From contig CBDAOU010000001.1 of the NCBI GenBank assembly GCA_965198185.1, positions 302,013-366,012 of the forward strand: a stretch of 64,000 bases of DNA, given 5' to 3'. Position numbers and translations under genes: made by a program. Under the pieces are notes generated by a model that was not told the origin of the DNA, did no database searches, and saw only the letters and a program-made list of their open reading frames with translations. Below, in pieces: positions 6,664 through 36,518 of this stretch (positions are counted from its first letter, which is position 1; every line of letters starts with the position of its first letter). This stretch comes from Chloroflexota bacterium. Lineage in GTDB: Bacteria > Chloroflexota > UBA11872.

Positions 6664-7272
6664 CCCGACGCCGACCGCGCGAAACGGTGAGTCGGATCGG
6701 CCCACGCGCGCTCGCCCCGCACCCACGAAGCAGACCTGCGCCGACGTGCAACTAGGCTCGTTCAGCGACCGGCGGTTTTGCCGGGTGGCGCGCTATTCCT
6801 CGATGGTTGGCCCGAGGACTAGGCGATCGCTCTCGGGATCATCGACGAGCAAGAACTCAACCGTCGTCTCTCTGGTAACCATGAGCCGTAGCCGGTCACC
6901 AACTCGCTCACACCCCACCGCCTCTTCGGGTGTGACATCGACGCGACGACATGCGTCGGCGTATAGATCGCTCAGCGATACCCGCCGTCGTGTGGCCAAA
7001 TGAACTCTCCTCCCTCTGCAAAGTGCAAGGCTTGCACATCGCCCGCGCACCTTAGTCTGCCCAACCATACGCCGACCAGTCAGTCGCTGGGCAAGGATGG
7101 GGGGCGGGACAATGCGCGGCGGTCGGGGAAGCTGCTACAGTGTCGCGCGGCCTCGGGCGCGTGTAAATGTCGGCAGCGTCTAGTTGACTTGACATTGTGC
7201 GCGTGCGCCCACCGGGCGTGCGGGGTCGTTGAGACGCGGGGAGGCGTTGGGGTAGCTTTCGCTCGCCCATGA

Positions 7273-8550: not shown

Positions 8551-8628
8551 CCTCCCACGCGCAGGACGGCACGGCGGGCGTCGCGCCGGCGTTATCCGTC
8601 GCCTGGGGTCAGGCTCGGGCGCGGTGAC

Positions 8629-9645
8629 TCACCGAGCGCGCAGCCATCGATCCATGAAATCCAGCGGCGCCTGGGGCAGGAATTCGTGGCCCCCGTCGAA
8701 TTCGTCGCGGGCCAGGCGATCCGCCGCACCTGCCGCCGCGTAGATGGCCGCAAGATGCGCGTGGGCCTGCCGCGACGCCTCGATGTTGAATCCCCGATCG
8801 GACCGTCCCGCCTGGATGAGCAGCGGCCGCGGGGCGATGCACCCGTGAATGTCCGGCACATCGGCCAGGTCGTACACACCCGGTAGGAATTGGGAGCCGC
8901 AGAAGTTCCCGGCGTCAAGGGCATAGGCGCGGAAGGTGGTGAGATAGCCGCTCACCACAACGGCCGCCGGGCGCTCGTCGAGCGCCGCGAGATACATCGC
9001 GCGGGTGCCTCCAAACGAGAGTCCGGCGACGCCGATGCGGCTCGCGTCCACCTCGGGCCGGTCCTGGAGGAGATCGAGGGCGCGCTGGTCGTCCCAGAGG
9101 GCGAGGGTCATGAGGTTACGCCCGAAGAGGGCCAGCTTGAGAAAGTTGATGTTGCAGCCGTCGCGACCGCCGTAGCGCCGGAATCGCTCGCCGCGCTCGC
9201 CAAAGCCCGGAGCGTCGGGAGCCAGCACCACGTAGCCGCGCTGGGCGAAGCACTTTGCAAAGGCGTGGTAAATCCCGGCGGTGACGAGATCGTCCTTGCC
9301 TCCGCCGTGGCCGTGCAAGGCCAGGATGGCCGGCGCCGGATGGCGGGCGTCGACGCCGTCGGGTACGAGCAGATAGGCGGGCACGTCAACATCGGGCGCG
9401 GAGCGATACACGAGCTTGGTCTGCACGTAGCCGGGGCAGACGGTGCGCTCGACCTCGACGGGCTCAGGGTCGACCGGGGCGGGCAACGGTCCGAGGAGGC
9501 CCTTGATCGCCTCTCGCAGGTTGTCGCGCCACGCATTGAAGTCAAGGCCCGGCCGGAAGGCGTGGCTTGGTTGGTGCGCGGCGTCCAGCCGCATGAGTTG
9601 ATCGTCGAACGCGAACTGCCATTCCCGCGGCGCTGTGGCACTCAT
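8629..9645 (-). CDS. alpha/beta hydrolase (dienelactone hydrolase / acetyl-xylan-esterase-like)
   Basis: 338 aa from MSATAPREW. HGHGGGKDD and GLSFGG nucleophile elbow. Start overlaps the stop of the upstream TIM-barrel gene (ATGA). Confidence 0.7.
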   Translation of the reverse strand: MSATAPREWQFAFDDQLMRLDAAHQPSHAFRPGLDFNAWRDNLREAIKGLLGPLPAPVDPEPVEVERTVCPGYVQTKLVYRSAPDVDVPAYLLVPDGVDARHPAPAILALHGHGGGKDDLVTAGIYHAFAKCFAQRGYVVLAPDAPGFGERGERFRRYGGRDGCNINFLKLALFGRNLMTLALWDDQRALDLLQDRPEVDASRIGVAGLSFGGTRAMYLAALDERPAAVVVSGYLTTFRAYALDAGNFCGSQFLPGVYDLADVPDIHGCIAPRPLLIQAGRSDRGFNIEASRQAHAHLAAIYAAAGAADRLARDEFDGGHEFLPQAPLDFMDRWLRAR

Positions 9646-10513: not shown

Positions 10514-11212
10514 ATGGCGACCGATCCCGCGTCGGGCCATTCGGAGGACGATGAGCAGCTCGCCGTCACGCAGGCGGACGGCACGCCGACCGGCGTCATC
10601 AAGTCGCGCAGGGCAATTCACACCGACGGCGACTGGCACCTCACTCGAAGTGTTTGGGCGCTGCTGATGAACGCCCCCGCCGGGCCGGCGCTGGTGCTGC
10701 AGCAGCGCGGACCATTCAAGGCCTCGTGGCCCGACCGGCTCGATGCGAGCTCGGCCGGGCACTTGCGCGTCGGCGACCCCGACACGTGGCGCGAGGCGGA
10801 GGAGGAGCTGGGTCGGCGTCCCGGTGCAGGCGAGGTCTTGTCGTTAGGCAAGCGGCAGAGCGGGGGCCGCCTCCCGAACGGACAGATCGACCTCGAGGTC
10901 CAAGAGCTATGGCTATGGCGCTGCCCCTTCGACTTGCTTGACCTTGAGCCGCCTTATCCGGAGGTGGGGGCGTTGCTGGCCGTGGCCCCCGACGCCCTCC
11001 GGCGTCTCGCGTCCGGCGAGGTGCAGCGCATTCCGGCGGTGGTACGGCGGCCCGGCGCGCCCAACGTGGAGGCTGGATACGCCACGGCGGACCAACTGAT
11101 TCCCGGCGAGGAGCCCTACATCAAGCAGGTGTGCGAGATCACGCTGCGCACCCTGGCAGGCCAATCGTGGACGCCGCTGGACGTGGACACGGAATACGAA
11201 CTCGGGCCGTAA
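10514..11212 (+). CDS. NUDIX hydrolase
   Basis: Nudix box-like GHLRVGDPDTWREAEEELG from Met MATDPASGH. The listed ORF start at 10403 is probably too far upstream. Confidence 0.6.
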   Translation: MATDPASGHSEDDEQLAVTQADGTPTGVIKSRRAIHTDGDWHLTRSVWALLMNAPAGPALVLQQRGPFKASWPDRLDASSAGHLRVGDPDTWREAEEELGRRPGAGEVLSLGKRQSGGRLPNGQIDLEVQELWLWRCPFDLLDLEPPYPEVGALLAVAPDALRRLASGEVQRIPAVVRRPGAPNVEAGYATADQLIPGEEPYIKQVCEITLRTLAGQSWTPLDVDTEYELGP

Positions 11213-11260
11213 CCGAACCTCCGCGAGCGAGTGGCACGACCGTCACAAGGAGGCTCGCCG

Positions 11261-11803
11261 TCAGCGGCGCCTGATGACGAGGAATGCGCCGAACGCGATC
11301 AGGATCAGCGGCCACAACCGCCAAGCATCGAATTGCGCGAAGAGCCCCAGTGAATCCAGCAGCGCAAGCACCCCAATGGCAACCAACGCCAGCCCGACGA
11401 TTGCCGGACCGCCCATGCGACGGCCGCGATTGCCGGCCGATCGTCCCGGCGCGTACGGCTGGTACGTCGGCGCGGCGTCAGGGGCTGCCGGCTCGGCATG
11501 CTGTTGCGGCGCGGATTCCGCACCTTCGGGCTCGTCGTCCGGCTGCAGCGTTTGTCCAGCTTCGGCGGGTTCGTCATCCGCTCCAACCGCTCCGGGTTCA
11601 ATCCCCGGCCCGGGGGCGGGGGGCGTGGGCACGACGACCACCATGACGAGGTACGCGATGATGGCGACCCCACCGGTGAAGATGGCGAGCAGCACCCAGA
11701 CCAGGCGCATAAGCGTGGGATCAACGTCGAAATAGTCCGCCATGCCGCCCGACAGTCCGGTGAGCAGCCGGTCGTGCTCGCTGCGATAGAGGCGGCGTTG
11801 CAT
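11261..11803 (-). CDS. PspC-domain membrane protein
   Basis: N-terminal [34 protein letters not shown] is a canonical PspC domain followed by a TM helix. Acidic/Pro-rich linker and C-terminal TM pair. Confidence 0.75.
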
Positions 11804-11860
11804 GACAGGGTCCTCCGCGCGCGTATGCTCCGGAGGTCACTCTAAATCCGGGAGCACTTT

Positions 11861-12685
11861 TTGTCATCGCGCGCCGGCCACACGCCAGATCCCGACGCCG
11901 ATCGCCAGGACCAACTGGCCGACCGCGGCTTGCGGCTTCAGGTGTTTCTGGCGCGGGCGGGGCGCGGGTCGCGTCGGACGATGGAGCAGGCGATCCGCGG
12001 TGGACGGGTGGCCGTCGACGGCGAGGTCGTGACAACGCTCGGTGTGCGGGTTGATCCTCGGCAGCAGGAAGTCCGGCTGGACGGGAAGCCGGTTCAACCC
12101 ACGCAGCGGCCGGGAACGGTCATCGCGCTACACAAGCCGCCACGGGTGCTCACGACCACCCACGATCCCCAGGGGCGCCCGACGGTGCTGCATCTACTGC
12201 CGGGAGCGCTGCGGCGGGAGCGCTTGTATCCCGTCGGCCGGCTCGATTTTGCCTCCGAGGGTCTGGTGCTGATGACCAATGACGGTCAGTTGGCGTTTCA
12301 GCTCATGCATCCGCGCTTCGGCCACGAGCGCGAATACGTCGTGACAGCACGCGGGCCTGAACCGCCCGATCTTGCCCGGCGCCTGACCGAAGGCGTCGAT
12401 ATCGGCGACCGGCGGCCGGCCCGGGCCGTGCGCGCTCGACGAGTAAGCGACGGCTGGCAGCTGGTGCTGACGGAGGGCCGCAAGCGCCAAGTGCGGCGCA
12501 TGTTCGAGGCGCTCGGGATGCGCGTCACCCGGCTGTGCCGCGTGCGCATTGGTTCGGTGGCTCTAGGCGACCTGGCGCCCGGAGAGGCGCGGCAGCTAGA
12601 GGCCGACGAACTGGCGGCGCTGCGGCGAGAGGTGGCGGGAGCTACGGACAGCCGCGACTCAGACGGCTCTGGTCAGCCTCCCTAG
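11861..12685 (+). CDS. pseudouridine synthase, RsuA/RluB family, with S4 domain
   Basis: RLQVFLARAG S4 motif. Catalytic LYPVGRLDFASEGLVLMTNDG. True start may lie downstream of 11861. Confidence 0.8.
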   Translation: MSSRAGHTPDPDADRQDQLADRGLRLQVFLARAGRGSRRTMEQAIRGGRVAVDGEVVTTLGVRVDPRQQEVRLDGKPVQPTQRPGTVIALHKPPRVLTTTHDPQGRPTVLHLLPGALRRERLYPVGRLDFASEGLVLMTNDGQLAFQLMHPRFGHEREYVVTARGPEPPDLARRLTEGVDIGDRRPARAVRARRVSDGWQLVLTEGRKRQVRRMFEALGMRVTRLCRVRIGSVALGDLAPGEARQLEADELAALRREVAGATDSRDSDGSGQPP

Positions 12686-13101
12686 ACGCTCTCCGCCGGG
12701 CGCATGTTGGAGCGGTTGCGCTGGATGAAGGCGGCGATGCCCAGCGCGATCCATGCCGGGAGCGAGAGGACGAGCGGGTAAAGCACGATTCCCACCGGAC
12801 CGAACAGCCCGCCGATCACCGCCCCATAGACCGTCAGGGGCGCCAGCACGGCACCGCACACATAGGCCAACACGCGGACGCGCCGGTGCAGAAAGGTCAC
12901 TGCCAGAGTCAGCGGCAGCGCGGCGATCCAGGTGAAGAGGACCATGAGCGCAATCATCGCGACCGCGTTCGGAATCCCGCCCGCTTCCTCACCCGGGGAC
13001 AGGGTGGCGAAGCGGATGGCCGTGACCACCAGAATCACCAGCGGGAGCCAGAGCGAAAGAACCAAGAGTCGCAGAACGCGTCGGATCGTTGACTGTTGCA
13101 T
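12682..13101 (-). CDS. hypothetical small membrane protein
   Basis: 139 aa with four hydrophobic helices. Convergent with the pseudouridine synthase gene. No family recognised. Confidence 0.4.
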   Translation of the reverse strand: MQQSTIRRVLRLLVLSLWLPLVILVVTAIRFATLSPGEEAGGIPNAVAMIALMVLFTWIAALPLTLAVTFLHRRVRVLAYVCGAVLAPLTVYGAVIGGLFGPVGIVLYPLVLSLPAWIALGIAAFIQRNRSNMRPAESV

Positions 13102-13304
13102 GTGCCCACCAGTGCGCCACGCGTATCGGACATTCTATCCCTCGCCCTGCCCGACCCGACTGTAGCGACCACCACACAAACGCCGACGTTTGGCGAATGA
13201 CCATCCAGCGTCATTGGCGCCGGCAAGCGCGCCCAGGCATGTAGGCTAGGCCGCCGAGCCGCCGGCCGCGCCTTTGCGGCGAGCGTGCAGGACGAGGAGT
13301 CCGC

Positions 13305-14069
13305 GTGGAGACGCAGACGGAGTTCGCCGCGGGTTTGGGGCAGATCATCCTGTTCGACCTGATCTTGAGCGGCGACAACGCCGTGGTGATCGGGGTGGTG
13401 GCAAGCCGGCTGCGGGGGCGGCAGCGGCGACTGGCCATTCTGTTCGGCGCGGGTGGCGCCGTGGTGCTGCGGATAGCGTTCGCGTCCATTGCGACGCTGC
13501 TGCTACAGGTGCCGGTGATCTCGCTGGTCGGCGGGCTGGCGCTGTTCTGGGTGGGCTGGCGCCTGCTTGCTCCCCACGGGGACGACGAGCACCACGAGGC
13601 GGCAACGACCTTTGCCCAAGCGCTGCGGCTGATCATTCTGGCGGACGTGGTGATGAGTCTGGATAACGTCCTGACCGTCGCCGGCGCGGCTCACGGAAAC
13701 ATCTGGCTGCTGGTGATCGGGCTGGCGCTGTCCATCCCGCTGCTGTTCGTGGGCTCGGGCCTGATCGCACTCGCGACCGAGCGGCTGCCGCTGATCATCT
13801 ACGCGGGTAGCGCGCTGATCTTCCGCATCGCGCTGGTCCTGATCATCGACGATCCGGCGCTGCACGAGCGACTGATCGTTGAGGATCGGGAAACACTGAA
13901 CTTCGTCATCGCGCATGTCATACCGTGGCTCGCGGCAATTGCCGGTCCGGCGCTGTACGTGCTGGTGGCGCGGTGGCGGGGACGGCGGGTGCTGCCGATC
14001 TGGGCCGGGTCGTCGGACACGCGCGACGCGGCGGATGAGTCGCCGGGCGCACCGTCGGGCGGGGCGTGA
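13305..14069 (+). CDS. TerC family integral membrane protein
   Basis: LILSGDNAVVIGV and SLDNVLTVAGAAHG duplicated TerC motifs. Confidence 0.8.
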   Translation: METQTEFAAGLGQIILFDLILSGDNAVVIGVVASRLRGRQRRLAILFGAGGAVVLRIAFASIATLLLQVPVISLVGGLALFWVGWRLLAPHGDDEHHEAATTFAQALRLIILADVVMSLDNVLTVAGAAHGNIWLLVIGLALSIPLLFVGSGLIALATERLPLIIYAGSALIFRIALVLIIDDPALHERLIVEDRETLNFVIAHVIPWLAAIAGPALYVLVARWRGRRVLPIWAGSSDTRDAADESPGAPSGGA

Positions 14070-14105
14070 GACTATGGGCCAACACCGTGTGAGGAGGTCC
14101 GATCT

Positions 14106-14489
14106 ATGGCTCAACTGCTGCATACGCGCATTCGCGTCAGCGATCTCGACCGCTCGATTCGGTTTTACGAGGACTACCTAGGCTTCAGCGTCATCAGCCG
14201 GACGGACCGATCGCCCTCCGGGAACCACATCGTGCACCTGGAGCTGCCGGGCAATGCGCACACGATCGAGTTCACCTGGTCCGAGGACTACGATCTTCGC
14301 GTGCCCGAGGACCTGATGCACTTCGCCATCGCCGTGCCCGACCTGATTGCGTTTTGCGACGACCTGGAGCGCCGTGGGATCGAGATCTGGCCCGACGGTT
14401 GGCGGGAGAAGTTTCCGCTGGGGCGGAAGATGGCGTTCATCGACGATCCGGACGGCTACGAAATCGAGCTGCTGGAGCGGGCGGAATGA
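14106..14489 (+). CDS. gloA: glyoxalase I / VOC family lactoylglutathione lyase
   Basis: MAQLLHTRIRVSDLDRSIRFYEDYLGF...HLELPGN...EFT with an MAFIDDPDGYEIELLE C-terminus. Typical small GloA. Confidence 0.75.
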   Translation: MAQLLHTRIRVSDLDRSIRFYEDYLGFSVISRTDRSPSGNHIVHLELPGNAHTIEFTWSEDYDLRVPEDLMHFAIAVPDLIAFCDDLERRGIEIWPDGWREKFPLGRKMAFIDDPDGYEIELLERAE

Positions 14490-15361
14490 GCGAAGCAGGC
14501 ATGACGACGACACCGCTGGAGGACGAGTTCGGCGACGTCATCGGCAAGGCCCGCCGCGGACTCGGTCTGGAGCCCGCGGAGGCTGCACAGCGCGCTGACC
14601 TCGACGAGGCGGTCGTGCGCAGCATGGAGGACTACGAACGCCAACCGACGCGGGCCGAGAGCGACCGCCTGGCGGCGGCGTTGGAGCTACACGCGCCGAG
14701 CCTCTGGGATGTCGCCACGGAGGCGTGGCGACCGCAGGCGCAGCCAGCAACGCTGGACGGCGGCCTAGAGGTGCGCATGATTCCGCATCCGCCAATGCGC
14801 GTGACGATGTACATCGTCGGCGACCCGTCGACCGGCGACGCGCTGGTGGTGGACCCAGGCGCGCTGCCAGACACAGTGCTCGAAACCGTGAGCGAGGCCG
14901 GTTGGCGCGTGACGGCGTATCTGATCACGCATGGCGATGCCGACCACATCGACGCTCTGGCAGCGGTCTACGCACAGGCGCCCGCCCCGGTGTGGGTGCA
15001 TGAGGGCGCGCGGCCCTTGGTGCACGGCGTCAACGACTCGGACCTGAACGTTGTGACCGCCGACGGACCGTTCTCCGTGGGGCCCTTCGCGCTCGAAGCG
15101 CTCGAAACCCCCGGCCACGCGCCCGGCCACACGGCCTATGCGCTGCGCGACGGGGTACTCGTAGGGGACACGGTGTTTGCCGGGTCGATCGGCGGCACGC
15201 GGACGGGCAGCCTCGGCTACGCCGGACAGCTGGCCGCCATCCGCGCCAAGCTGCTGACCCGCGGCGACGACACGAAGTTCTTTCCCGGACACGGCCCCCC
15301 CACGACCGTGGGCGAGGAGAAGCTCCACAACCCGTTCTTGGCTGCCGCGCCGGGCGTGTAG
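14486..15361 (+). CDS. HTH (XRE-like) domain fused to an MBL-fold metallo-hydrolase (glyoxalase-II-like)
   Basis: ATG overlaps the gloA stop (ATGA at 14486-14489). N-terminal LGLEPAEAAQRADLDEAVVRSMEDYERQP is helix-turn-helix-like. Then ITHGDADH (HxHxDH) and a downstream GHAPGH metal ligand. Confidence 0.7.
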   Translation: MSEAGMTTTPLEDEFGDVIGKARRGLGLEPAEAAQRADLDEAVVRSMEDYERQPTRAESDRLAAALELHAPSLWDVATEAWRPQAQPATLDGGLEVRMIPHPPMRVTMYIVGDPSTGDALVVDPGALPDTVLETVSEAGWRVTAYLITHGDADHIDALAAVYAQAPAPVWVHEGARPLVHGVNDSDLNVVTADGPFSVGPFALEALETPGHAPGHTAYALRDGVLVGDTVFAGSIGGTRTGSLGYAGQLAAIRAKLLTRGDDTKFFPGHGPPTTVGEEKLHNPFLAAAPGV

Positions 15362-15431
15362 GCCAATCTGGGCGGATGCGCGACAATAGCGTGGCAGCTT
15401 GCCGCTACGGCGCGCCTTTTAACGGGAATCG

Positions 15432-16187
15432 ATGTTCGTCTACGACATTTCAACCCGACTCGCGTGCTCAACGCTCTTGTTCCGCGCCCAGTCGCTGGAC
15501 CGGGCGCTGGACGGCGTGAAGGCCGCCGGCATCGAACATGTCGATCTATGGGCGGCGCCGACGGTGCTGGCCCACGTGGACCCCGCGGTCGAGAGCGCGG
15601 CGGACGTGCAGGCCGTGCTCGAAGCGCGCGGGCTGCGCGCGTCGTCGGTGACGGCCGTTGCGACCTCCGGCGACACGATGCTTCAGCGAATCAGCTTCGC
15701 CGCCGAGCTCGGCGCGCGCGTGGTCATTGCCACGGCGCCGCGGCGCGACTATGACCGCCGCGAAGCGGCCGACGACGTCCGCGCCTATGGCCGCACGGCG
15801 CAGGAAGCCGGCGTCACCCTCTGTCTGGCGCACCAGGCGGATACCTGGATGGACACGGCCGAGGAAGTCTCCTCGTTCCTGGACGACGTGGGTCATCCCC
15901 GCGTGCAACTGAGTCTGGACCCCGCGCAGGCCGCGCGCGACGGAATCACCTTCAAGGCGCTGGCCGACGCCGCCGGCACCCGAATTGGCCACGTGCACCT
16001 GACCCACGCGGCGGATTCCGGCAGCTCGCACACGCTGGGCGCCATGTTCGACCAGCTCGAAGAGCGCAACTACTACGGCATGTTCACCTTCAGCTGGGAC
16101 GGCACGGACAACCTGCCGCCGGAAGAGGTGGAAGCCACCGTGCGCGAAGCGCGCGCCCACGTGCTGGAGGTCTCCAAGGCCGGGTAG
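15432..16187 (+). CDS. sugar phosphate isomerase/epimerase (TIM barrel)
   Basis: 251 aa. Xylose-isomerase-like TIM-barrel family pattern (IEHVDLW, IGHVHLTHA). Confidence 0.65.
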   Translation: MFVYDISTRLACSTLLFRAQSLDRALDGVKAAGIEHVDLWAAPTVLAHVDPAVESAADVQAVLEARGLRASSVTAVATSGDTMLQRISFAAELGARVVIATAPRRDYDRREAADDVRAYGRTAQEAGVTLCLAHQADTWMDTAEEVSSFLDDVGHPRVQLSLDPAQAARDGITFKALADAAGTRIGHVHLTHAADSGSSHTLGAMFDQLEERNYYGMFTFSWDGTDNLPPEEVEATVREARAHVLEVSKAG

Positions 16188-16216
16188 CGCGGAGGTCAGC
16201 CGCCTACACTGTTCCC

Positions 16217-16507
16217 GTGAACGTGGGAACCCTGGAGCTGGTGCTGCGCATCCACGGCGCGGACTCCCTCAAGGACCGGCGCCGGGTGGTGCGGGCGCTC
16301 ACGGCCCGGCTGCGCAACAGCTTCAACGCGGCCGTCGCCGATCTGGAGCAGGACCCCGAGCCGCACTCGGCGCGCGTGGGCGTGGCCTGCGTCGCCAACG
16401 ACAGCCGCTATCTGGACGGCCAGCTCACCGCCATCGTGAACTTCGTCGAGGCCCTGCACCTGCCGCTGGAAGTGGTGAGCGACGCCCGCGAGATCGTGCG
16501 CCTGTAG
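16217..16507 (+). CDS. DUF503 (YlxP-like) protein
   Basis: 96 aa; LELVLRIHGADSLKDRRRVVRALTARLRNSFNAAVADL matches the DUF503 pattern. Confidence 0.7.
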   Translation: MNVGTLELVLRIHGADSLKDRRRVVRALTARLRNSFNAAVADLEQDPEPHSARVGVACVANDSRYLDGQLTAIVNFVEALHLPLEVVSDAREIVRL

Positions 16508-16600
16508 CCGGAGCCGGGCCTCAGCCGCGCCGCGCCTGCCTCACTGCGTCTGCAATGCACCCATTCTGGTGAGTTCGTCCCAGTCCGTCGTGAGCCGCTG

Positions 16601-16625
16601 CCGTTCGTGGTGAGCCTGTCGAACC
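16601..16625 (-). repeat. 25-bp dispersed repeat copy 1 (reverse complement of the copy at 55515-55539)
   Basis: ccgttcgtggtgagcctgtcgaacc is the exact reverse complement of ggttcgacaggctcaccacgaacgg. Each copy seeds a spurious ORF starting MVSLSNHE/R. Embedded in a longer GC hairpin-rich stretch (16580-16760). Confidence 0.8.
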
Positions 16626-17409
16626 ACCGCGAGCACCTTGGCCGGCATCGACCGATCCCCCTCAACCTCGCCTTTCCCACCAGGGGAGATGGGACCGGAT
16701 GCATACGCTCCGCACACCCCGCGCGCCATTCCAGGATCTCCACTCCCCAATCGCCATCTCCCCACGCGCAGTCGCCAACGCTCCGGTACACTGCGCGCCG
16801 AATAGCGGCGAAGGGCTTGGAGTTGCAGCGGTGGCCGTAGTTGCTCATCCGGGAAACCGGCGGAGCGTAGGAGGCATGCCGTTGCCAGTCGAAGCCATTC
16901 TTGGTCTAGTAGCCTTTCTGGGCTTCTTCCTGATGTGGGCTGTAGTTCCGGCCCAAATCCGAAAGCGATAGCCGAACCGGGCACTTCCCCGTAGAAGGCG
17001 CCGCACTGATGCGCGTTGGGCAAAGCTCGCCCAAGCCAGCTCGATGGCACAGAGCCTGGTGGTCGCCCCGCGACTCCAAGCCCCCGCCGCATTCAAAATC
17101 CCCGACGACAAGCCACGCCAGCGGGAATAGAGACGCCGTTCGCAACCCGTCGACAGCCGCACCAGCAATACCTCTGGGATTGACAGCCGCCGACGCATTG
17201 CGCACGCTTTGCGCGTACACCCCCTGCATGCTTCGGCGGCAGGGCGCAAGGCTGCCGCAAGGCAGCCTTAGCTTTTGTGGGGATGATTGACATCCGCACC
17301 AACGTCTACGTAGACGGCTTGAATCTCTACTATCGGGCGTTGCAGGTCACGCCGCCGTCGCTCAGTCCTTGCGTCCGCGCCCGCTCGCGTTCCAGCATCG
17401 ACAGGCGCG

Positions 17410-27733: not shown

Positions 27734-27943
27734 CGGCGCTCCTCGGCCGACGCCCGAGGGTGCGGCACGCGCATCGCGAACAGGTGCGACCGGGTCACGA
27801 CGGGGCGTACTGTGTCGCGTTACCCACGGCAACAGCGTCCACCGCATGCCACCATGGGCCTCACCTATGTCCCGATTTGCCACCTTCGGATGCGCCGTCT
27901 GGCGACAGCAACTGCCGTCGCGGCGCCCCATGGCCCGCGTTCG

Positions 27944-28933
27944 ATGGATCCAATGAACGGCTCGGGGCACCACAGGCAGTCGTCGTCGCGACGTTCGCGA
28001 CGCCGGGTGCTCCAGGGAGGCGGCCTGGCCCTCGCGGCCGGAGTGGCACAGGCATGCGATGCCTGGTCGGTGGTGGGCAAGGCCGACGACCGCTACCCAG
28101 GGGGATCGCCCTTCGCCATCGAGGCGCTGCGCGCACGGGACTACCGGGCGGGCGACATCCGGCTGCACCGCACGCTCAACCAGCGCCCCAGCTATACGAC
28201 CTACGCCATCACGTACCGCTCGGACGACTTGCTGCTCACGGGGGTGGCGACGATTCCGAAATCGGCCGGACCGCACCCTGTCGTCGTGCTGAACCACGGA
28301 TTCATGCTGCCGGTGCAGTACGACAGCGGCGACGGCACCCGGGCCATGGCCGCCGAGCTGTCGCCGCGTGGCTTCATCACGCTCGCCAGCGACTATCGAG
28401 GACATGGCGGGTCCGAGGACGACACGCGGCTGAATTCGGGCGCGCGGCTCGAGTTCGCCATCGACGTGCTCAATCTCGTCGCCTCGATTCCCTCGCTACC
28501 CGACGCCCAACACGAGCGCGTGGGCATGTGGGGCCATAGCCTGGGATGCGACCTGGCCCTGCGTGCCGCGGAGGTCGACGCGCGGGTACAGCCGGTGGGG
28601 ATGTGGGCGCCGTTGAGCGCGTGGGCGGAGGACCTGGTGGACTACTACCGGCTCCCGACGCTGTCGTCGTCAAAGGACCTGCGCCACGCGCTATCGCCGG
28701 GGAACTTTCTGAACTATCTCGTCGGACCGGTGACGATCCATCAGGGCGCGGCCGATCTTGCCGTCAAGCCTCGGTGGGCGGCACGGCTGCACGAGGCGCT
28801 GAACGAGGCGGGGGTGGAGAGCGAGTTGACGATTCATCCCGGCGTGGGGCACTACCTGACCCTGAACGCTCGGCGGGCGGTGACCGCAACGGCGGACTTC
28901 TTCGAGCGCGAACTCCTGCACGACGCCAGGTGA
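27944..28933 (+). CDS. Tat-secreted alpha/beta hydrolase (prolyl oligopeptidase/S9-like)
   Basis: Twin-arginine signal SRRSRRRVLQGGGLALAAGVAQA. GHSLG nucleophile elbow. Confidence 0.65.
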   Translation: MDPMNGSGHHRQSSSRRSRRRVLQGGGLALAAGVAQACDAWSVVGKADDRYPGGSPFAIEALRARDYRAGDIRLHRTLNQRPSYTTYAITYRSDDLLLTGVATIPKSAGPHPVVVLNHGFMLPVQYDSGDGTRAMAAELSPRGFITLASDYRGHGGSEDDTRLNSGARLEFAIDVLNLVASIPSLPDAQHERVGMWGHSLGCDLALRAAEVDARVQPVGMWAPLSAWAEDLVDYYRLPTLSSSKDLRHALSPGNFLNYLVGPVTIHQGAADLAVKPRWAARLHEALNEAGVESELTIHPGVGHYLTLNARRAVTATADFFERELLHDAR

Positions 28934-29469
28934 CGACGCACCACGGCGACCATGGCGAAACGAGCCTGTTCGATGGCGCCCGCGTGGAGAAGGTCGACGC
29001 GCGGATCGAGGCGCTGGGCGCGGTGGACGAGCTCAACTCGTGGCTGGGCTTTGCCGCGGCGCAGCCCGACGTCGCCGGCGTGGGCGACCGGCTGCGCTGG
29101 GTCCAGGAGCGGCTGCTCGAGGTCGGCGCGGACCTGGCCAATCCCGGCGGCCGCGCCCGCAGCACCTCGCTGGCGCCGGGGTCGCTACAGACGCTGGATG
29201 CCTGGCTGGCCGAATACCGCGACGCGCTCCCACCACTGCGGCACTTCATCCTGCCCGGCGGGCACCCGCTCGCCGCCGCGCTGCAAGTTGCTCGCTCGGT
29301 GTGCCGCCGCGCCGAACGCGGCGTATGGCGCGTGGTGACGGATCCCGCGCCGGAAGGCTCGCCGGTGTTTCTCAACCGGCTGTCCGACGTGCTCTTCGAG
29401 ATGGCCCGCGCGGCCAACGCCGCCGCCGGCACCGAGGATCCCCAGTGGCGCGGGCGGGGCGATGTCTAG
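28930..29469 (+). CDS. ATP:cob(I)alamin adenosyltransferase, PduO type
   Basis: GTG overlaps the upstream stop (GTGA). TTHHGDHGETSLFDG at the N-terminus; GGHPLAAALQVARSVCRRAER... C-terminus. Confidence 0.75.
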   Translation: MTTHHGDHGETSLFDGARVEKVDARIEALGAVDELNSWLGFAAAQPDVAGVGDRLRWVQERLLEVGADLANPGGRARSTSLAPGSLQTLDAWLAEYRDALPPLRHFILPGGHPLAAALQVARSVCRRAERGVWRVVTDPAPEGSPVFLNRLSDVLFEMARAANAAAGTEDPQWRGRGDV

Positions 29470-29729
29470 CTTGTCTGCACTAACGTAGGCGCCCGTCTAC
29501 ACCTTCAGGCTTTCCGGTATTCGCCATCAGTCGCTCGCGGAGCCGGCGCGAGCTTCGCGCCGCATCTCCCAGCCGGTAGCAGCATTGGGTGATCGACTTG
29601 ACGATCCGCTGCCATCGTCCTGCGCGAGCGGGCTGCTCGTGATGCCCTCCGACTACAGCTTTGTCGGCGGGCCGAAGGTCAACCGTTGTATGATCTCGGG
29701 TTATATGCGGAGGACGCGAGGCTAGACCA

Positions 29730-30251
29730 GTGATTACGCAGCTATTTGGCGGACGGATTCCACCTCTGCTTCGCAATATCTTCAGCTTTCCGAATCCGGT
29801 CAACGAAGTGGCTGCAAGGATCGTAGCTGGAATGGTAGTCATCCTATCCATTATTGTATTAGTAACCGGTCAGTGGTGGTTGATGTTTCTCCTTGCGTAT
29901 GGCTTTCTGGCCAGAGTAGCCACCGGGCCTACGCTAAGCCCGATGGGCCTGCTGGCGACCAGGGTGATCGCGCCGCGAATTGCTCAACAGCGGCTCGTCC
30001 CGGGGCCGCCGAAGCGCTTTGCTCAAGCGGTGGGGCTTATTTTCTCGATGACCGCACTGGTGTTGCACTTCGTCGCAGGATTGTCGGTGGCAGCTGGCGC
30101 CGTCTTGGCGGTGCTGACCGTATTTGCCGCGCTTGAGTCATTTCTGGGTTTCTGCGCCGGATGCTTTGTGTTCAACTACATGATTCGCTGGGGGTTGGTG
30201 CCGAAGTCGGTCTGCGAGGAATGCCTAAACTTTGACTCGACACGGACATAG
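29730..30251 (+). CDS. DUF4395 family membrane protein (lower-GC insert)
   Basis: 173 aa with four TM helices and C-terminal C..C.....C motifs (FCAGCFVFNYMIRWGLVPKSVCEEC). Local GC is visibly lower than the flanks. Confidence 0.55.
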   Translation: MITQLFGGRIPPLLRNIFSFPNPVNEVAARIVAGMVVILSIIVLVTGQWWLMFLLAYGFLARVATGPTLSPMGLLATRVIAPRIAQQRLVPGPPKRFAQAVGLIFSMTALVLHFVAGLSVAAGAVLAVLTVFAALESFLGFCAGCFVFNYMIRWGLVPKSVCEECLNFDSTRT

Positions 30252-30357
30252 GCAGCTCTTTGACCACCGTCGCAAGCGTTCCGCATCACACGAACATTGG
30301 CGGGGCGCATGGCGGTTCGACAGCCTGAGTCAGTCCGCGATTCCCGCGATGCAGACC

Positions 30358-30540
30358 GCCCGTTCCATCTGCCGCCGCGCCGAACGCGACGTGTGGCGCG
30401 TGGTGACGGAGCCGGTGCAGGAAGCCTCGCCGGGGTTCCCTAACCGGCTGCCGGACGTGCTCTTCGAGATGGCCCGCGCAACCAACGCCGCCGCCGGCAC
30501 CGAGGATCCGCAGTGGCGCGGGCGGGCGGAGAGCCCGTAA
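30358..30540 (+). pseudogene. 3' fragment of a second PduO-type adenosyltransferase gene (diverged direct repeat of 29293-29469)
   Basis: ARSICRRAERDVWRVVTEPVQEASPGFPNRLPDVLFEMARATNAAAGTEDPQWRGR versus ARSVCRRAERGVWRVVTDPAPEGSPVFLNRLSDVLFEMARAANAAAGTEDPQWRGR in the intact gene. Roughly 89% nucleotide identity over ~150 bp. Confidence 0.75.
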
Positions 30541-30690
30541 GCCGGACGACCATGGCATTGCGAGGGCGGAATGCTCTTGTGAGTGGTAGATGGGAGTCCC
30601 TGAATATGCCCGCCGCGCCAACCTGATAGACGGCTAGGCGGCGCGGGCGCCGTGCATGGATTGTGCATGGATGGGGTCGCAAAGCGTGGC

Positions 30691-31212
30691 TTAGCTGCCG
30701 TCTTGCTGTTCCAACTCCGCGCACGCGATGTACCACGCGTGGCGTGTTTCAAAGAGGTCGAAGATGGCCTCACCCTCGCTGTCCCACCTCGTGGTGTTGA
30801 GGGCGGTTTGCAGCGCCCAAAGGATTCGGCGTCCCGTGACTCCCGCTGCCTGCTGCGCACGCTCGGTCCAGCAGTCGCCCGGACGCCAGTTGTCCGGGAT
30901 TTCCTTTTCGGGGATCAGTCCCAAGCGCTCGCACCGGTCGCAGGATTCGCGTTCAGGGGCCAGAGAATTGCCCAGCAGCACGCCGGTGCGCAGGCTGGCG
31001 AGGGTCCGACACGCGAGGCACATGCGCTCGTCGCTCTCAGCCACCGAACCGTGTCGGTCCCAGCCGACATCAGCAATATCGCCGCAGTCAGGCTTGCCGC
31101 AGAACGTGCACAGCATCGGCGGCGGCGCAAAGTCCTGCGAAGGCCATTGGTCCCGCTGCGAATAGACGCAGGACGGTTGACCACACTGCGGGCAGAGGTC
31201 TCTTGACTTCAC
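30691..31212 (-). CDS. Cys-rich hypothetical protein with two predicted zinc ribbons
   Basis: 173 aa. CPQCGQPSC...CTFCGKPDC...CLAC...CDRCERLG, then a helical C-terminal half. Starts 2 nt after the stop of the T5orf172 gene. No family recognised. Confidence 0.55.
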   Translation of the reverse strand: MKSRDLCPQCGQPSCVYSQRDQWPSQDFAPPPMLCTFCGKPDCGDIADVGWDRHGSVAESDERMCLACRTLASLRTGVLLGNSLAPERESCDRCERLGLIPEKEIPDNWRPGDCWTERAQQAAGVTGRRILWALQTALNTTRWDSEGEAIFDLFETRHAWYIACAELEQQDGS

Positions 31213-31214
31213 CG

Positions 31215-31781
31215 TTAACTTCCCCCGCCTTCGCCCACAGCGCCAACGTCTATCTGGCTCGCCACGTCAGTCGCGGGAGGCGCGGTGCTTTCAACGGGAC
31301 GGAGGGACTCTTGAAAGCGCCAAACAGGCTCGTCTACGCCTGGCATTTGGATCACAGCCATGTAGGGAGTGAGCCTTTCGATGACACCCTCACCGCCGTC
31401 GAAGGTGACAGACTGGCCGACAGCCAAGTCGACGCCCGGCGGTTCATCGTCGCGCTGCGGCGTGACGTCCTCTCCGTCTAGCAGTTCCAGAATTGCCGCA
31501 ACTTGCTCCACCGCCACCTCAAAGAACTCGCGCCATGCGTGGACGCGCGCTGGCTCGAACGCCTGATGGAGTGCGGCTTCGACGGCTTGATAGTTGTCGA
31601 CTAAGCGGGCGATTTCGCACCTAAAGGGAGTCGGGACGCCCGAGGACCATAGGCCCTTGAGTCGCTTGTCGAGGTTTCCGTCGCTTGTGCACCCGATCTT
31701 GACCACATCCGGCATCGCCGGGTTCGTCAGCACGTAGACGATGCCGCGGTCATCATTGGACGTGGTGTCCTCAGTCGCCAC
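31215..31781 (-). CDS. T5orf172 (GIY-YIG superfamily) domain protein
   Basis: GIVYVLTNPAMPDVVKIGCTSDGNLDKRLKGLWSSGVPTPFRCEIA...REFFEV is a close match to the T5orf172/MUG113 domain. Acidic C-terminal extension of unknown function. Confidence 0.7.
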   Translation of the reverse strand: MATEDTTSNDDRGIVYVLTNPAMPDVVKIGCTSDGNLDKRLKGLWSSGVPTPFRCEIARLVDNYQAVEAALHQAFEPARVHAWREFFEVAVEQVAAILELLDGEDVTPQRDDEPPGVDLAVGQSVTFDGGEGVIERLTPYMAVIQMPGVDEPVWRFQESLRPVESTAPPATDVASQIDVGAVGEGGGS

Positions 31782-31840
31782 TAACGCGACTCCATCATGG
31801 TCCGGCAGCGGACGGCGAGCGTATCAGACAGATTCGCGGC

Positions 31841-32150
31841 CTACGCCGCCCCCGGCAGCCGCCGCCGCAGGGCGTAGCCGAAGTCAACGTAGCACCCGCC
31901 ACTGTGTCCGCCCGGCGTGAACAGGATCAGATTTGTAGCCTCGCGGATGTCCGCCAAGTCGATCTGGGCGCAGCGGCGTCGCTCAAGCGTCGTCAGCGCC
32001 TCGATTGGCTTGCGAAGGTCCGCGTTCGCCACCGGGTTATGCCAGCGGTTCACGACGGGGAATCCCAGGTCGCGCAGCTGCTAGGCGTAGCCTTCAATCT
32101 CAGCGTGCCGCTCGAACCGCGCCGCGAGGTAGATGCCGTGAATGGGGTTC
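31841..32150 (-). pseudogene. nucleoside 2-deoxyribosyltransferase-like gene interrupted by an in-frame TAG (32071-32073)
   Basis: My translation: ...ENPIHGIYLAARFERHAEIEGYA*QLRDLGFPVVNRWHNPVANADL...ILFTPGGHSGGCYVDFGYALRRRLP. IYLAg...G.P and G..SGG.yvdfGYA resemble the NDT/DUF4406 family. Only the part after the stop is in the ORF track (GTG 32053). Confidence 0.45.
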
Positions 32151-32294
32151 TCGGTCACGGGTGGCCCGCCTCTCCCTGTGCATGGGTCTGCTCATAGATA
32201 GAGGTGCACGGGCGCACACGGAGAGCAACCGGCGACCGCTCGCGGGGCACGATTACAGAAGGGAGAGGCCCCTTCGCGCACGGAGAGAAGCGTG

Positions 32295-32371
32295 TGGTAG
32301 GGCATGCGGGATTCGAACCCGCGATCTCCGCCTTGAGAGGGCGGTGTCCTGGGCCGCTAGACGAATGCCCC
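32295..32371 (-). tRNA. tRNA-Glu (anticodon CUC)
   Basis: Minus strand reads GGGGCATTCGTCTAGCGGCCCAGGACACCGCCCTCTCAAGGCGGAGATCGCGGGTTCGAATCCCGCATGCCCTACCA. 7-bp acceptor stem, D-arm TCTAGCGG, anticodon stem CCGCC/GGCGG with loop CTCTCAA, T-arm GGGTTCGAATCCC, encoded CCA. Confidence 0.85.
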
Positions 32372-34731: not shown

Positions 34732-35609
34732 GCCGCACCTGCCGTTCCGCGGAAGCGTTCCACGATTTCCCGCAGCCGATTGAGTATCTGCGCGTTCACC
34801 TCGAGCGAGTGGCCGTCGACCATGGCGGTGTTCGAGCGAGTCATGCCGTCCACGGCGCCGGCCGCCACGAGACGCTCAATCCAGCCCGCCTCAGTGGCGC
34901 CGTCCGGCAGCGTGTCGCGGCCGGTCACGATATCCAGCATAGCGACAAGGCCGTAGGCGCCCCAGTTGCTGACCTCGGCCAGCAGGAGGTGCGCAGCGCG
35001 GGTCACGCTCACACCTGGGATGAGCCCCTTGGCCCCGAGGAATTGCGCGATGGCGCCCATGCCGATTTCATTGCCGCCGTCGCCGACCGCCACCGAGAGC
35101 GGGGCGCGCATCAGCGGGTCCAGCGCGGCGGCTATGCCGGTGATGTCCTCACCGCGCATGGTGATCAGCCGGTCGTCGGCCGTGAGCCCCGGCCGCTCGA
35201 TCGCCACGACCAAATCGGGTGCATACTTCCGGCGCAGCGCCTCGCAGGCCGCCTGGGCGCCGCGACCGGTGCTCGGAGCCGCAACGACCGGCCCGATGTC
35301 GGCAAGCAGCGCATCGACGACGGGAAACGTCGTCTCGCAGGCCACCGTGACCACGTCCCAGCCGAGATCCGTCAGCGTCCTCCCGACCGCCATCGCGCCC
35401 GGCGGGCCGTCGGTCTCGCCGATCCCGCCGACGGGAAACCCCGTGAGGAGCATCGCCTGGGCGGGCGGGCGATCCGCGATAGCCACGGCAGTTCGGGCGT
35501 AGGCGTCCTCCGGCAGGAGACCGCGGCATGCGCCAAGGCCGCGGCTGTCCGTGGGGAAGACGGCGGCGGCTATCGCCTCTGCCGCGTTGCGCTGCCACCC
35601 CTGCATCAT
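34728..35609 (-). CDS. DUF4392 protein (second half of a split D-glutamate-cyclase-like enzyme)
   Basis: 293 aa; GFPVGGIGETDGPPGA and VGDGGNEIGMG motifs. Stop/start overlap with the DUF1445 gene (ATGA). Confidence 0.6.
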   Translation of the reverse strand: MMQGWQRNAAEAIAAAVFPTDSRGLGACRGLLPEDAYARTAVAIADRPPAQAMLLTGFPVGGIGETDGPPGAMAVGRTLTDLGWDVVTVACETTFPVVDALLADIGPVVAAPSTGRGAQAACEALRRKYAPDLVVAIERPGLTADDRLITMRGEDITGIAAALDPLMRAPLSVAVGDGGNEIGMGAIAQFLGAKGLIPGVSVTRAAHLLLAEVSNWGAYGLVAMLDIVTGRDTLPDGATEAGWIERLVAAGAVDGMTRSNTAMVDGHSLEVNAQILNRLREIVERFRGTAGAA

Positions 35610-35764
35610 TTGCGTTGGCCGGTCGTCATTCGAATCCCCAGTGAGTTTACGCCGACTCTACTTGGGCGCGAGCGTAGAATGCGGATCAACCGGCGACGGC
35701 CTCACGATACATTCTCGATTGTCAATCGCGGCCCTGGTCGCAAGACACTGCAGACAAGAGAAAC

Positions 35765-36343
35765 TCAAGACTCTCTAGCAAAGACACCAAGAAAGCTAAT
35801 CCAGCCCAAGATACCGATCAATACAATAGTAAATTCACCTCTGCCCAACGGCGCTATCGCCGACCTCGGAGACGACTGCCAATAGCGATTCAAATCCTTC
35901 TGTATATACGACAAGATGCAAGCCGTAGCCAGTACATCGGTAAGAAATGCCACCTGAGAAATCGCAGCTATCTCAAAAACTTGGGAGTCCATCCCGATTT
36001 CCCAAGGGTATAGCAGCCTCATGGCGGGAAACATAAATCCAAATAGATATACAAAGCCAAATGCAATCACAGCTAGCACAGGCTTGATGGATGTGTCCAA
36101 GCCTCGTGCTACCATCAGATCCTTGTATGCCCGCACGTGATTGTGAACTTGAAACAGGCCATAAAACGGCACTAGAAACGACAGAGCATGCAAGAGTGGA
36201 TATGCCGTTCTTCCAGTATGATCCCTATAGTGCTTCCAGGTACGGAATGCCCAATACAGAAGGTATAGACCTCCTGATATCAATGAGACAATAACTACAC
36301 CTCTCACTGGTATTACGTATTGGTTTGAGTACACTCTCGGCAA
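35765..36343 (-). CDS. hypothetical membrane protein encoded in an AT-rich segment
   Basis: 192 aa with five hydrophobic helices. The local sequence is conspicuously AT-richer than the surrounding genome. Confidence 0.5.
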   Translation of the reverse strand: MPRVYSNQYVIPVRGVVIVSLISGGLYLLYWAFRTWKHYRDHTGRTAYPLLHALSFLVPFYGLFQVHNHVRAYKDLMVARGLDTSIKPVLAVIAFGFVYLFGFMFPAMRLLYPWEIGMDSQVFEIAAISQVAFLTDVLATACILSYIQKDLNRYWQSSPRSAIAPLGRGEFTIVLIGILGWISFLGVFARES

Positions 36344-36518
36344 ATTTTGTAACTAATGTCAATCCCCGACGCTAAGGGCGTAGCCCTAACTTTAACAGAA
36401 GGCTCCTTAAACATCGGTCCACATTGGCCCGTCAACGCCACCGCCCGATACAGCTCCAGCGCCACTGGTTCCCACTGGCGCGACTTGGCGCTGTAGTCTA
36501 CCGCAGCAATAGCTTCGC

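Follow-up and report, generated by a model that had tools for sequence, protein, structure and literature searches.

A direct repeat of the 3′ end of a PduO-type ATP:cob(I)alamin adenosyltransferase gene, enclosing a lower-GC gene for a DUF4395 membrane protein, was analysed in 64,000 nucleotides of a Chloroflexota bacterium (GenBank assembly GCA_965198185.1, contig CBDAOU010000001.1, positions 302,013 to 366,012 of the forward strand). This whole stretch is referred to as the window, and positions are counted from its first letter. The upstream repeat copy (copy A) is the functional end of the intact adenosyltransferase gene and the downstream copy (copy B) a decaying pseudogene fragment. At about even confidence, copy B is read as one half of the footprint of a single old, additive insertion of the Campbell type at a hotspot between PduO and a tRNA-Glu gene. 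The structure carrying this reading is the interleaved duplication of the PduO and tRNA-Glu ends around DUF4395 in related genomes.

Related genomes

The comparison was based on a scan at one genome per species, which gave nine close Chloroflexota metagenome-assembled genomes (L001–L009), two of them closed chromosomes. Look-ups of PduO homologs added L127 and L129–L133, plus the outgroups L126 and L128; L126, L127 and L133 represent insertion sequence (IS)-rich or truncated contexts and added little. Trees of gyrB-plsX, the hydrolase gene upstream of PduO, and ffh gave the topology ((L006, L008, L127), (window + L130, crown group)). The window and L130 belong to the same species (flanks 98.9% and 95.7% identical, third-position divergence 0.02), and L131 is close to L008 (flanks 94–96.5% identical). 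Record names suggest sponge and coral metagenomes as the source of several relatives.

The repeat pair

A repeat search returned one direct repeat pair of 183 nt with 86% identity, its copies lying 1068 nt apart from start to start. Both copies were placed in the same register by MAFFT, and BLAST aligned a core of 157 nt (29302–29458 versus 30370–30526) at 89.8% identity. The gene ending in copy A gave a full-length match to the Pfam profile Cob_adeno_trans (7.5e-50, profile positions 2–170 of 171), and its GTG start, as read from the sequence, overlaps the TGA stop of the upstream hydrolase gene (27812–28933) in the motif GTGA. Copy B lies inside an open reading frame (ORF) at 30232–30540, which matched only positions 120–170 of the same profile (4.9e-09) and is thus a fragment, not a member gene of PF01923. 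The stop codon of this ORF comes one codon later than that of A, and in the window and in L006 the homology between A and B ends at the stop codon. An assembly artefact was ruled out, since two complete long-read chromosomes, L006 (OZ244789.1) and L008 (OZ253558.1), contain this fragment with an identical 5′ junction.

The 93 nt following DUF4395, together with the first 20 nt of B (CCGCGATGCAGACCGCCCGT) and approximately 14 nt more, were recovered from 10 of the 12 relatives' loci covering this stretch; L129 and L130 diverge before the DUF4395/B junction. The whole of copy B occurs in three genomes only, namely the window, L006 and L008, and the junction is also kept by 7 genomes in which the remainder of B is missing. 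Its first 20 nt are identical among these three (20/20) and match any A at 13–15 of 20 positions. This identical first segment with its junction indicates a single, fixed junction, the rest of B having been lost later in most lineages. A short duplication, CCGCGAT, is found at the junction, which lies mid-gene and looks illegitimate from its sequence. Copy B has the PduO residues specific to the clade (…Q.AR and NAAAGTEDPQWRGR; outgroups have LHVAR and NASSGV.DPEW), and was therefore derived from the clade's own PduO and not from a distant paralog.

Relative to A, the window's copy B is a mosaic, with 12/62 differences in its middle 62 nt versus 3/72 in its last 72 nt (81% and 96% identity, respectively; p = 0.006). 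The same was found in L008 (14/62 versus 4/72, p = 0.005). Among functional A copies, both segments are equally diverged (0.127 and 0.111). In the last segment of L008, A and B match each other at 68/72 positions, and either of them matches the copies of other lineages at 60–66/72. The mosaic and the closeness of A and B in L008 point to repeated A/B exchange, i.e. gene conversion, and these segment comparisons show the last 72 nt of B as re-homogenised with A in the window and in L008. Gene conversion also explains why B groups with the A of its own lineage. The A/B differences in the window are spread over all codon positions (5/7/14), and the divergence of the middle segment (19%) is comparable to neutral between-species divergence (0.2–0.3 at third positions), so that B is considered old and unconstrained. 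A displacement of B, as the resident allele, by a recent import into the window's species was rejected: B is 81% identical to the PduO end of L130 versus 86–91% to crown-group ends.

Other roles for this stretch were also considered. A small protein encoded in the conserved 93 nt after DUF4395 was rejected because of a frameshift in L007 and the lack of codon periodicity (16/17/23 variable sites, p = 0.46). A regulatory RNA such as a cobalamin riboswitch was likewise rejected, because Rfam at a permissive E-value matched only the tRNA. A promoter and terminator scan of 29.3–30.7 kb gave nothing informative.

The DUF4395 gene

DUF4395, the only gene between the repeat copies, matched PF14340 over the whole profile (positions 1–130 of 130; 7.4e-36, 123.8 bits versus a cut-off of 24.5). 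The membrane protein it encodes is rich in cysteines at the C-terminus. Its GC content is 0.56 and its GC content at third codon positions (GC3) 0.65, versus GC3 values of 0.83–0.92 in gyrB, plsX, the hydrolase gene, PduO and ffh. GC3 was similarly low (0.64–0.72) in 9/9 relatives measured, and by composition DUF4395 looks foreign.

A preliminary description of the window, made from its sequence alone, had reported a direct repeat of the adenosyltransferase 3′ end (29293–29469 and 30358–30540, ~89% identity), a distinct end of the second copy, a lower-GC DUF4395 gene in between, and a displaced gene end persisting as a fragment. The repeat was essentially right, with the extent and identities refined as given above; the interpretation is supported in part. 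The lower GC is borne out by the values for DUF4395, and the fragment by a non-functional B, which is a displaced or duplicated end of the clade's own PduO.

The same description had suggested comparing relatives for an empty site, with ancestral synteny as the contrary outcome, and it is the latter that was found. In 15/15 related loci reaching past PduO, DUF4395 sits between this gene and tRNA-Glu, always in the same orientation, and no empty site for it exists among these loci, the conspecific L130 included. The DUF4395 tree follows the species tree with the exception of L130, with distances like those of the flanking genes, and divergence is far smaller at codon positions 1 and 2 than at position 3, a pattern indicative of purifying selection. 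From presence in all 15 loci, the species-like tree and this selection, the arrival of DUF4395 is shown to predate the divergence of the sampled clade; it was no recent insertion.

Outside the clade, no PduO, ffh or plsX was found near DUF4395 in any of 80 more distant metagenome loci, all at ≤70% identity. In the outgroup L128 the order gyrB-plsX-hydrolase-PduO is kept and is followed by a different gene, with neither DUF4395 nor tRNA-Glu. The adjacency of PduO and DUF4395 is thus specific to the clade. In the literature, DUF4395 was found mentioned only in passing, in two papers.

Spacers and the interleaved tRNA-Glu fragment

The left part of the spacer between PduO and DUF4395 (~29470–29600) is common to L002–L005, L009, L129, L130, L132 and L133, and its right part (~29610–29729) is homologous to DNA upstream of DUF4395 in all relatives. 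The corresponding spacer of L130 consists of the window-type spacer plus about 150–165 nt. The homolog of this additional stretch in L006, L008 and L131 is the DNA directly following a tRNA-Glu fragment on its inner side. The stretch is therefore common to L006, L008, L130 and L131; the window-type spacer has neither the stretch nor the fragment.

In L006 and L008, a direct copy of 51–57 nt of the 3′ part of tRNA-Glu lies to the left of DUF4395 and copy B to its right, in the order PduO(A) … tRNA fragment … DUF4395 … B … tRNA-Glu. The sequence following the stop codon of A in L131 (GCACTCCAGACGCCCCGCGATAGATGC) is homologous over ~30 nt to the sequence following the stop codon of B in L008 (GCACCCTAAACGCCCCGCAAAAGATGC). 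As the same spacer follows A in one genome and B in the other, the duplicated unit in the L008/L131 lineage comprised the gene end together with the spacer. Given the composition of the L130 spacer, all genomes could descend from an ancestor with the order A – spacer – tRNA fragment – DUF4395 – B – spacer – tRNA-Glu, and an indel spanning the site of the tRNA fragment and the stretch next to it would set the window-type spacer apart from this layout.

A hotspot of exchange and insertion

Across the clade, the DNA immediately behind the PduO stop codon is of five different kinds: the window-type spacer, a giant ORF (L006/L007), another island (L008/L127), the L131 spacer, and a cluster of CobW-like and ATP-binding cassette (ABC) transporter genes (L001). 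At the tRNA-Glu gene, three footprints were found, of 7 nt in the window, of 24 nt with an integrase in L129, and of 51–57 nt in L006/L008. In L129 (14383–15895 and beyond), genes for a tyrosine integrase (393 aa), an excisionase-like HTH_17 protein and a DnaT_2 protein follow directly on the 24-nt copy of the tRNA-Glu 3′ end. The arrangement resembles a live integrative element occupying this same tRNA-Glu, with its far end beyond the fetched DNA. The fragment next to the integrase marks tRNA-Glu as a true integration site in the clade, in agreement with the suspicion voiced in the preliminary description for this side of the locus.

Between the conspecifics L130 and the window, PduO and DUF4395 are just 81–82% identical (window 28919–32295 versus L130 9996–11885), and the left breakpoint of this difference is the PduO start codon. 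The PduO of L130 groups with that of L009, and its DUF4395 with those of L006/L008 and not with its conspecific. On these alignments and trees, this is a whole-allele replacement within one species, by which homologous exchange at PduO–DUF4395 is demonstrated. The five post-PduO sequences, the three tRNA-Glu footprints and this allele swap identify the interval between PduO and tRNA-Glu as a hotspot of exchange and insertion.

Origin of copy B

A single crossover with a circle that carries a copy of a contiguous chromosomal interval characteristically leaves neighbouring features duplicated in direct, interleaved order around the insert. The interleaved PduO and tRNA-Glu repeats of L006/L008 accordingly point to a single crossover within one contiguous block of homology. 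In the favoured sequence of events, a small circular DNA would have carried a foreign DUF4395 together with a captured chromosomal interval, PduO 3′ end – spacer – tRNA-Glu 3′ end. An island residing in tRNA-Glu could have given rise to this circle by aberrant excision, the adjoining PduO end being taken along. The circle would then have entered a related chromosome by a single crossover in that homology, either through RecA or through an integrase acting in the tRNA part. The cassette would thereby have come to be flanked by two copies of the interval, in the order PduO(A) – spacer – tRNA fragment – DUF4395 – B – spacer – tRNA-Glu. Subsequently, the island cargo except DUF4395 would have been lost; most of B has since been deleted in most lineages, and A/B gene conversion has acted on the remainder. 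The tRNA fragment joins the cassette within the tRNA body, which is where integrases that target tRNA genes typically act. Three steps are inferred from the present layout: the formation of the circle, the capture of the host interval and the crossover.

Several observations weigh against this reading. In the window itself, no tRNA fragment was detectable to the left of DUF4395 (Smith–Waterman scores against shuffled sequences, p ~0.09, with the reverse-complement control scoring higher), and the spacers that follow A and B show no relation to each other. The spacer after B resembles the B–tRNA-Glu spacer of L006 (37/54) and tRNA-proximal DNA of L003 (37/55) only weakly, versus 31–33 of 56–58 in controls. 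The ancestral adjacency PduO – spacer – tRNA-Glu was deduced and never observed, the sole syntenic outgroup being L128 with its different gene, and neither a circular form nor an excision product was seen. The clustering of B copies with the A copies of their own lineage would be fitted equally well by independent origins. A 14-nt deletion in B is common to L006/L008 and the crown group and is absent from the window, which needs conversion or lateral exchange. Since the locus is a patchwork, any reconstruction is provisional.

A site-specific origin, as proposed in the preliminary description, would have an integrative element with DUF4395 enter the 3′ end of PduO, its attP providing the in-frame end A and displacing the native end B, followed by loss of the integrase. 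The remnant would resemble a cis-mobilizable element (CIME). The topology A – insert – B fits this model, as does the end of A/B homology at the stop codon in the window and L006, which is also seen in elements that restore the end of their target gene. The foreign composition of DUF4395 would be expected, the near-identical last 72 nt could be the crossover region, and there is precedent for elements that integrate into 3′ ends of housekeeping protein genes and decay to integrase-less CIMEs (PMC5704250). However, no integrase was found in 29.4–32.3 kb (Pfam search of nine selected ORFs of 27.8–32.2 kb; nothing homologous to the L129 integrase), 0/16 clade loci have an element with an integrase at the PduO end, the only integrase being that of L129 beside a tRNA-Glu fragment, and the repeat is 183 nt long at 86% identity with no short identical core. 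In the L008/L131 lineage, ~30 nt beyond the stop codon also belong to the repeat unit, and in L131 it is the supposedly native spacer that follows A, with DUF4395 still present downstream. The tRNA-Glu fragment left of DUF4395 in L006/L008 would have to be explained separately. The spacer duplication in L008/L131 and this interleaving both point to a duplicated interval larger than an attP that mimics only a gene end. No literature linking cobalamin adenosyltransferase genes with integration sites was found. Site-specific integration into PduO is therefore doubtful as the source of copy B.

Linear DNA could alternatively have been acquired by homology-facilitated illegitimate recombination, whereby a segment PduO* – spacer – DUF4395 from a relative was anchored in PduO and its far end joined inside the resident PduO, replacing the gene and pushing B downstream. 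Such a mechanism has been proposed for orphaned 3′ regions at rhs and type VI secretion system (T6SS) loci (PMC5361080). The whole-allele replacement between the window and L130, starting at the PduO start codon, and the single fixed post-DUF4395/B junction with its short CCGCGAT duplication would both be accommodated. This explanation is nevertheless unlikely, because by itself it accounts neither for the tRNA-Glu fragment left of DUF4395 nor for the same spacer after A and B in L008/L131, and it needs an adjacency of PduO and DUF4395 already in the donor.

An extension of the single-crossover insertion is that the DUF4395 cassette is still a working, integrase-free mobile unit with a captured homing arm of ~0.3–0.4 kb (PduO 3′ end, spacer, tRNA-Glu 3′ end). 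The A/B repeats of today could loop out DUF4395 by homologous recombination, and no evidence was found that they do; the extension is regarded as improbable. If it were true, the homing arm would be kept updated by the sequence of each host, and loop-out and re-entry through RecA would move DUF4395 between genomes of the clade and between the ends of the variable region.

If copy B was instead created independently and repeatedly, by excision and re-entry of the cassette, the window's B would be comparatively young. In line with this, B copies cluster with the A of their own lineage, the window's B does not have the 14-nt deletion of the other B copies and remnants, and the DUF4395 of L130 groups with L006/L008. 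The identity of the first 20 nt of B and of the junction in all lineages speaks against repeated creation, as does the middle segment (62 nt) of the window's B, whose 19% divergence from A is near the neutral between-species level; gene conversion is the simpler account of the same pattern. A recurrent origin is hence quite improbable.

A once-complete second PduO downstream of DUF4395, of which the 5′ two-thirds were lost, has very little probability left: B does keep its reading frame and stop codon, but no PduO sequence is left ahead of profile position 120, B is preceded by 93 nt of non-coding, unrelated sequence, truncation falls at one and the same point in every genome that keeps the stretch, derived clade-specific residues are common to B and A, and PduO is a neighbour in 0/80 other DUF4395 loci. 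The independent paralog that the preliminary description had weighed against its own proposal is thus not supported either.

Insert X and neighbouring features

Window homology to the relatives runs from gyrB through DUF4395 to ~30363 and resumes with the tRNA at 32292–32296. In between, an insert specific to the window (insert X; Table 1) adjoins the CCA end of tRNA-Glu. Homology to L006 after B runs to 30551 (BLAST), and the left boundary of X is uncertain within 30552–30590; on the right, X abuts 32294/32295. No match to X was found in the locus of any relative; neither the conspecific L130 nor L006 (B – spacer – tRNA) has it, and both represent empty sites. At the boundaries of X only 7 nt are repeated, GTGGTAG, at 30583–30589 and 32294–32300, the latter being the CCA end of the tRNA. 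No integrase was found in X by Pfam, and the window has no homolog of the L129 integrase.

One of the three reading frames of X matched PDC-S57, a defence candidate, and another, with an in-frame TAG, is probably a pseudogene judging from its translation. None of the X genes has a relative in the fetched loci. X is probably a deletion remnant, and its insertion is a separate event, the sole recent one in the window. The preliminary description had taken 29.5–32.3 kb as one composite or decayed element that has lost its integrase. A decayed, integrase-less insert at tRNA-Glu was confirmed; 29470–32290 as a single element was not, as only ~30590–32293 is specific to the window.

Table 1 Coordinates of the features at the PduO–tRNA-Glu interval of the window, and of the CobW-ABC cluster in relatives
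Locus	Feature	Coordinates	Strand	Basis
Window	PduO-type ATP:cob(I)alamin adenosyltransferase gene, intact; last 183 nt = copy A	28930–29469	+	PF01923
Window	Repeat copy A, functional gene end	29276–29458	+	Repeat search, MAFFT, BLAST
Window	PduO–DUF4395 spacer	29470–29729		Comparison with relatives
Window	DUF4395 membrane-protein gene, lower GC, kept at the locus clade-wide	29730–30251	+	PF14340
Window	Non-coding stretch after DUF4395, fused to the 5′ edge of copy B	30252–30343		Alignments
Window	Repeat copy B with its own stop codon (TAA, 30538–30540); decaying PduO 3′-end pseudogene fragment	30344–30540 (repeat 30344–30526)	+	
Window	Short spacer after copy B, ending GTGGTAG (30583–30589)	30541–30589		
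Window	Insert X, window-specific, ~1.7 kb, GC 0.64, at the tRNA-Glu CCA end	30590–32293		Comparison with relatives
Window	Cys-rich ORF in X, 173 aa	30691–31212	−	No match in Pfam, PHROGs, PADLOC
Window	T5orf172/GIY-YIG-like ORF in X	31215–31781	−	Pfam T5orf172 9.1e-16; PADLOC PDC-S57 1.7e-40, N-terminal half
Window	Frame in X with in-frame TAG, probable pseudogene	31841–32160	−	Translation; no Pfam match
Window	tRNA-Glu(CUC), integration hotspot; ffh next	32295–32371	−	ARAGORN; Rfam tRNA 64 bits
L001	CobW-ABC cluster	10690–16925		
L003	CobW-ABC cluster	12312–14725		
L004	CobW-ABC cluster	7126–9539		
L005	CobW-ABC cluster	11542–15213		
L129	CobW-ABC cluster	11867–14244		

Other cargo at the variable locus

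A cluster encoding a CobW-like GTPase, a WD40/beta-propeller protein and an ABC peptide transporter lies to the left of DUF4395 in L001 and to its right in L003, L004, L005, L007 and L129. Because the side differs, DUF4395 and this cluster must have swapped order between sister genomes. The giant ORF following directly on the PduO stop codon was found in L006 (10774–16044, 1756 aa) and L007 (10769–15702), which belong to different subclades, and L001 has a remnant consisting of its 3′ end only (17162–17346). The encoded product is possibly a surface protein, and the distribution of the ORF suggests lateral exchange of this allele.

Poorly annotated hotspot cargo occurs in L008 (13987–16322), L004 (11133–15048) and L005 (15676–17579). 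It includes a low-GC gene for a 362-aa protein with a weak Nuc_deoxyrib_tr match, an NYN-domain protein, a HATPase_c_3 protein between two ORFs with no Pfam match, and a helix-turn-helix (HTH) + ImmA/IrrE (Peptidase_M78) protein with a further ORF beside it. On the Tara metagenome contig L133 (8754–10525), genes for an IS481-type transposase, a relaxase-like protein and a resolvase precede PduO in place of the hydrolase gene, so that synteny upstream of PduO can break too.

A second low-GC segment of the window is located at 35600–36450 (GC 0.46–0.48 versus 0.67 for the window) and contains an ORF for a membrane-like protein of 192 aa (35765–36343, minus strand) with no Pfam match. By BLAST, this segment is gapped in L002, L008, L009, L131 and L130 and aligned across in L003, which identifies it as another variable insert.

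Comparison with known systems

Insertion of a circle with captured host DNA by the Campbell route is known from aberrant prophage excision (lambda gal/bio) and from suicide-vector integration. Such an insertion duplicates a contiguous interval on both sides of the insert, which here would be PduO end + spacer + tRNA end; the interleaved repeats of L006/L008 and the spacer found after A and B in L131/L008 match this. In contrast to them, no phage, plasmid or circle was observed, the cassette is only ~1 kb, and the event is ancient and heavily overwritten.

The closest described category is CIME-like decay and accretion at gene ends. CIMEs and tandem accretion of the ICESt1/ICESt3 type (PMC5704250) share with this locus a short integrase-less segment between direct repeats, one of which is the intact end of the target gene, as well as islands accreted at the same hotspot, here with the integrase-bearing element of L129 at the adjacent tRNA. 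Unlike in CIMEs, the repeats are long and diverged (183 nt at 86%) with no short identical core, a second pair (tRNA-Glu) interleaves with them, neither a cognate integrase nor a cognate element is known for the PduO site, and the DUF4395 cassette is fixed clade-wide instead of variable.

C-terminal displacement at rhs, contact-dependent inhibition (CDI) and T6SS loci (PMC5361080) similarly yields a new gene end with a downstream gene and an old 3′ end orphaned further downstream, with no integrase needed. PduO, however, is a housekeeping enzyme and no polymorphic toxin, both ends encode the same function, there is a single orphan, and no evidence of selection for diversification was found. 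Insert X in turn resembles tRNA genomic islands in its position at the 3′ (CCA) end of tRNA-Glu, its absence from the conspecific, its lower GC, and its content of a defence-candidate gene and a probable pseudogene; it differs from them in having no integrase and a boundary repeat of 7 nt only (GTGGTAG).

The structure is thus of a known kind and represents a new example from uncultured Chloroflexota. It provides a worked example of a foreign gene fixed beside a housekeeping gene that was left undisrupted, and of a duplicated gene end that is decaying, has been saved in part by gene conversion and persists as a recombination substrate. For genome scans, it follows that a gene-end repeat around a low-GC gene is no proof of a recent or integrase-mediated event; here, it was the comparison with relatives that decided.

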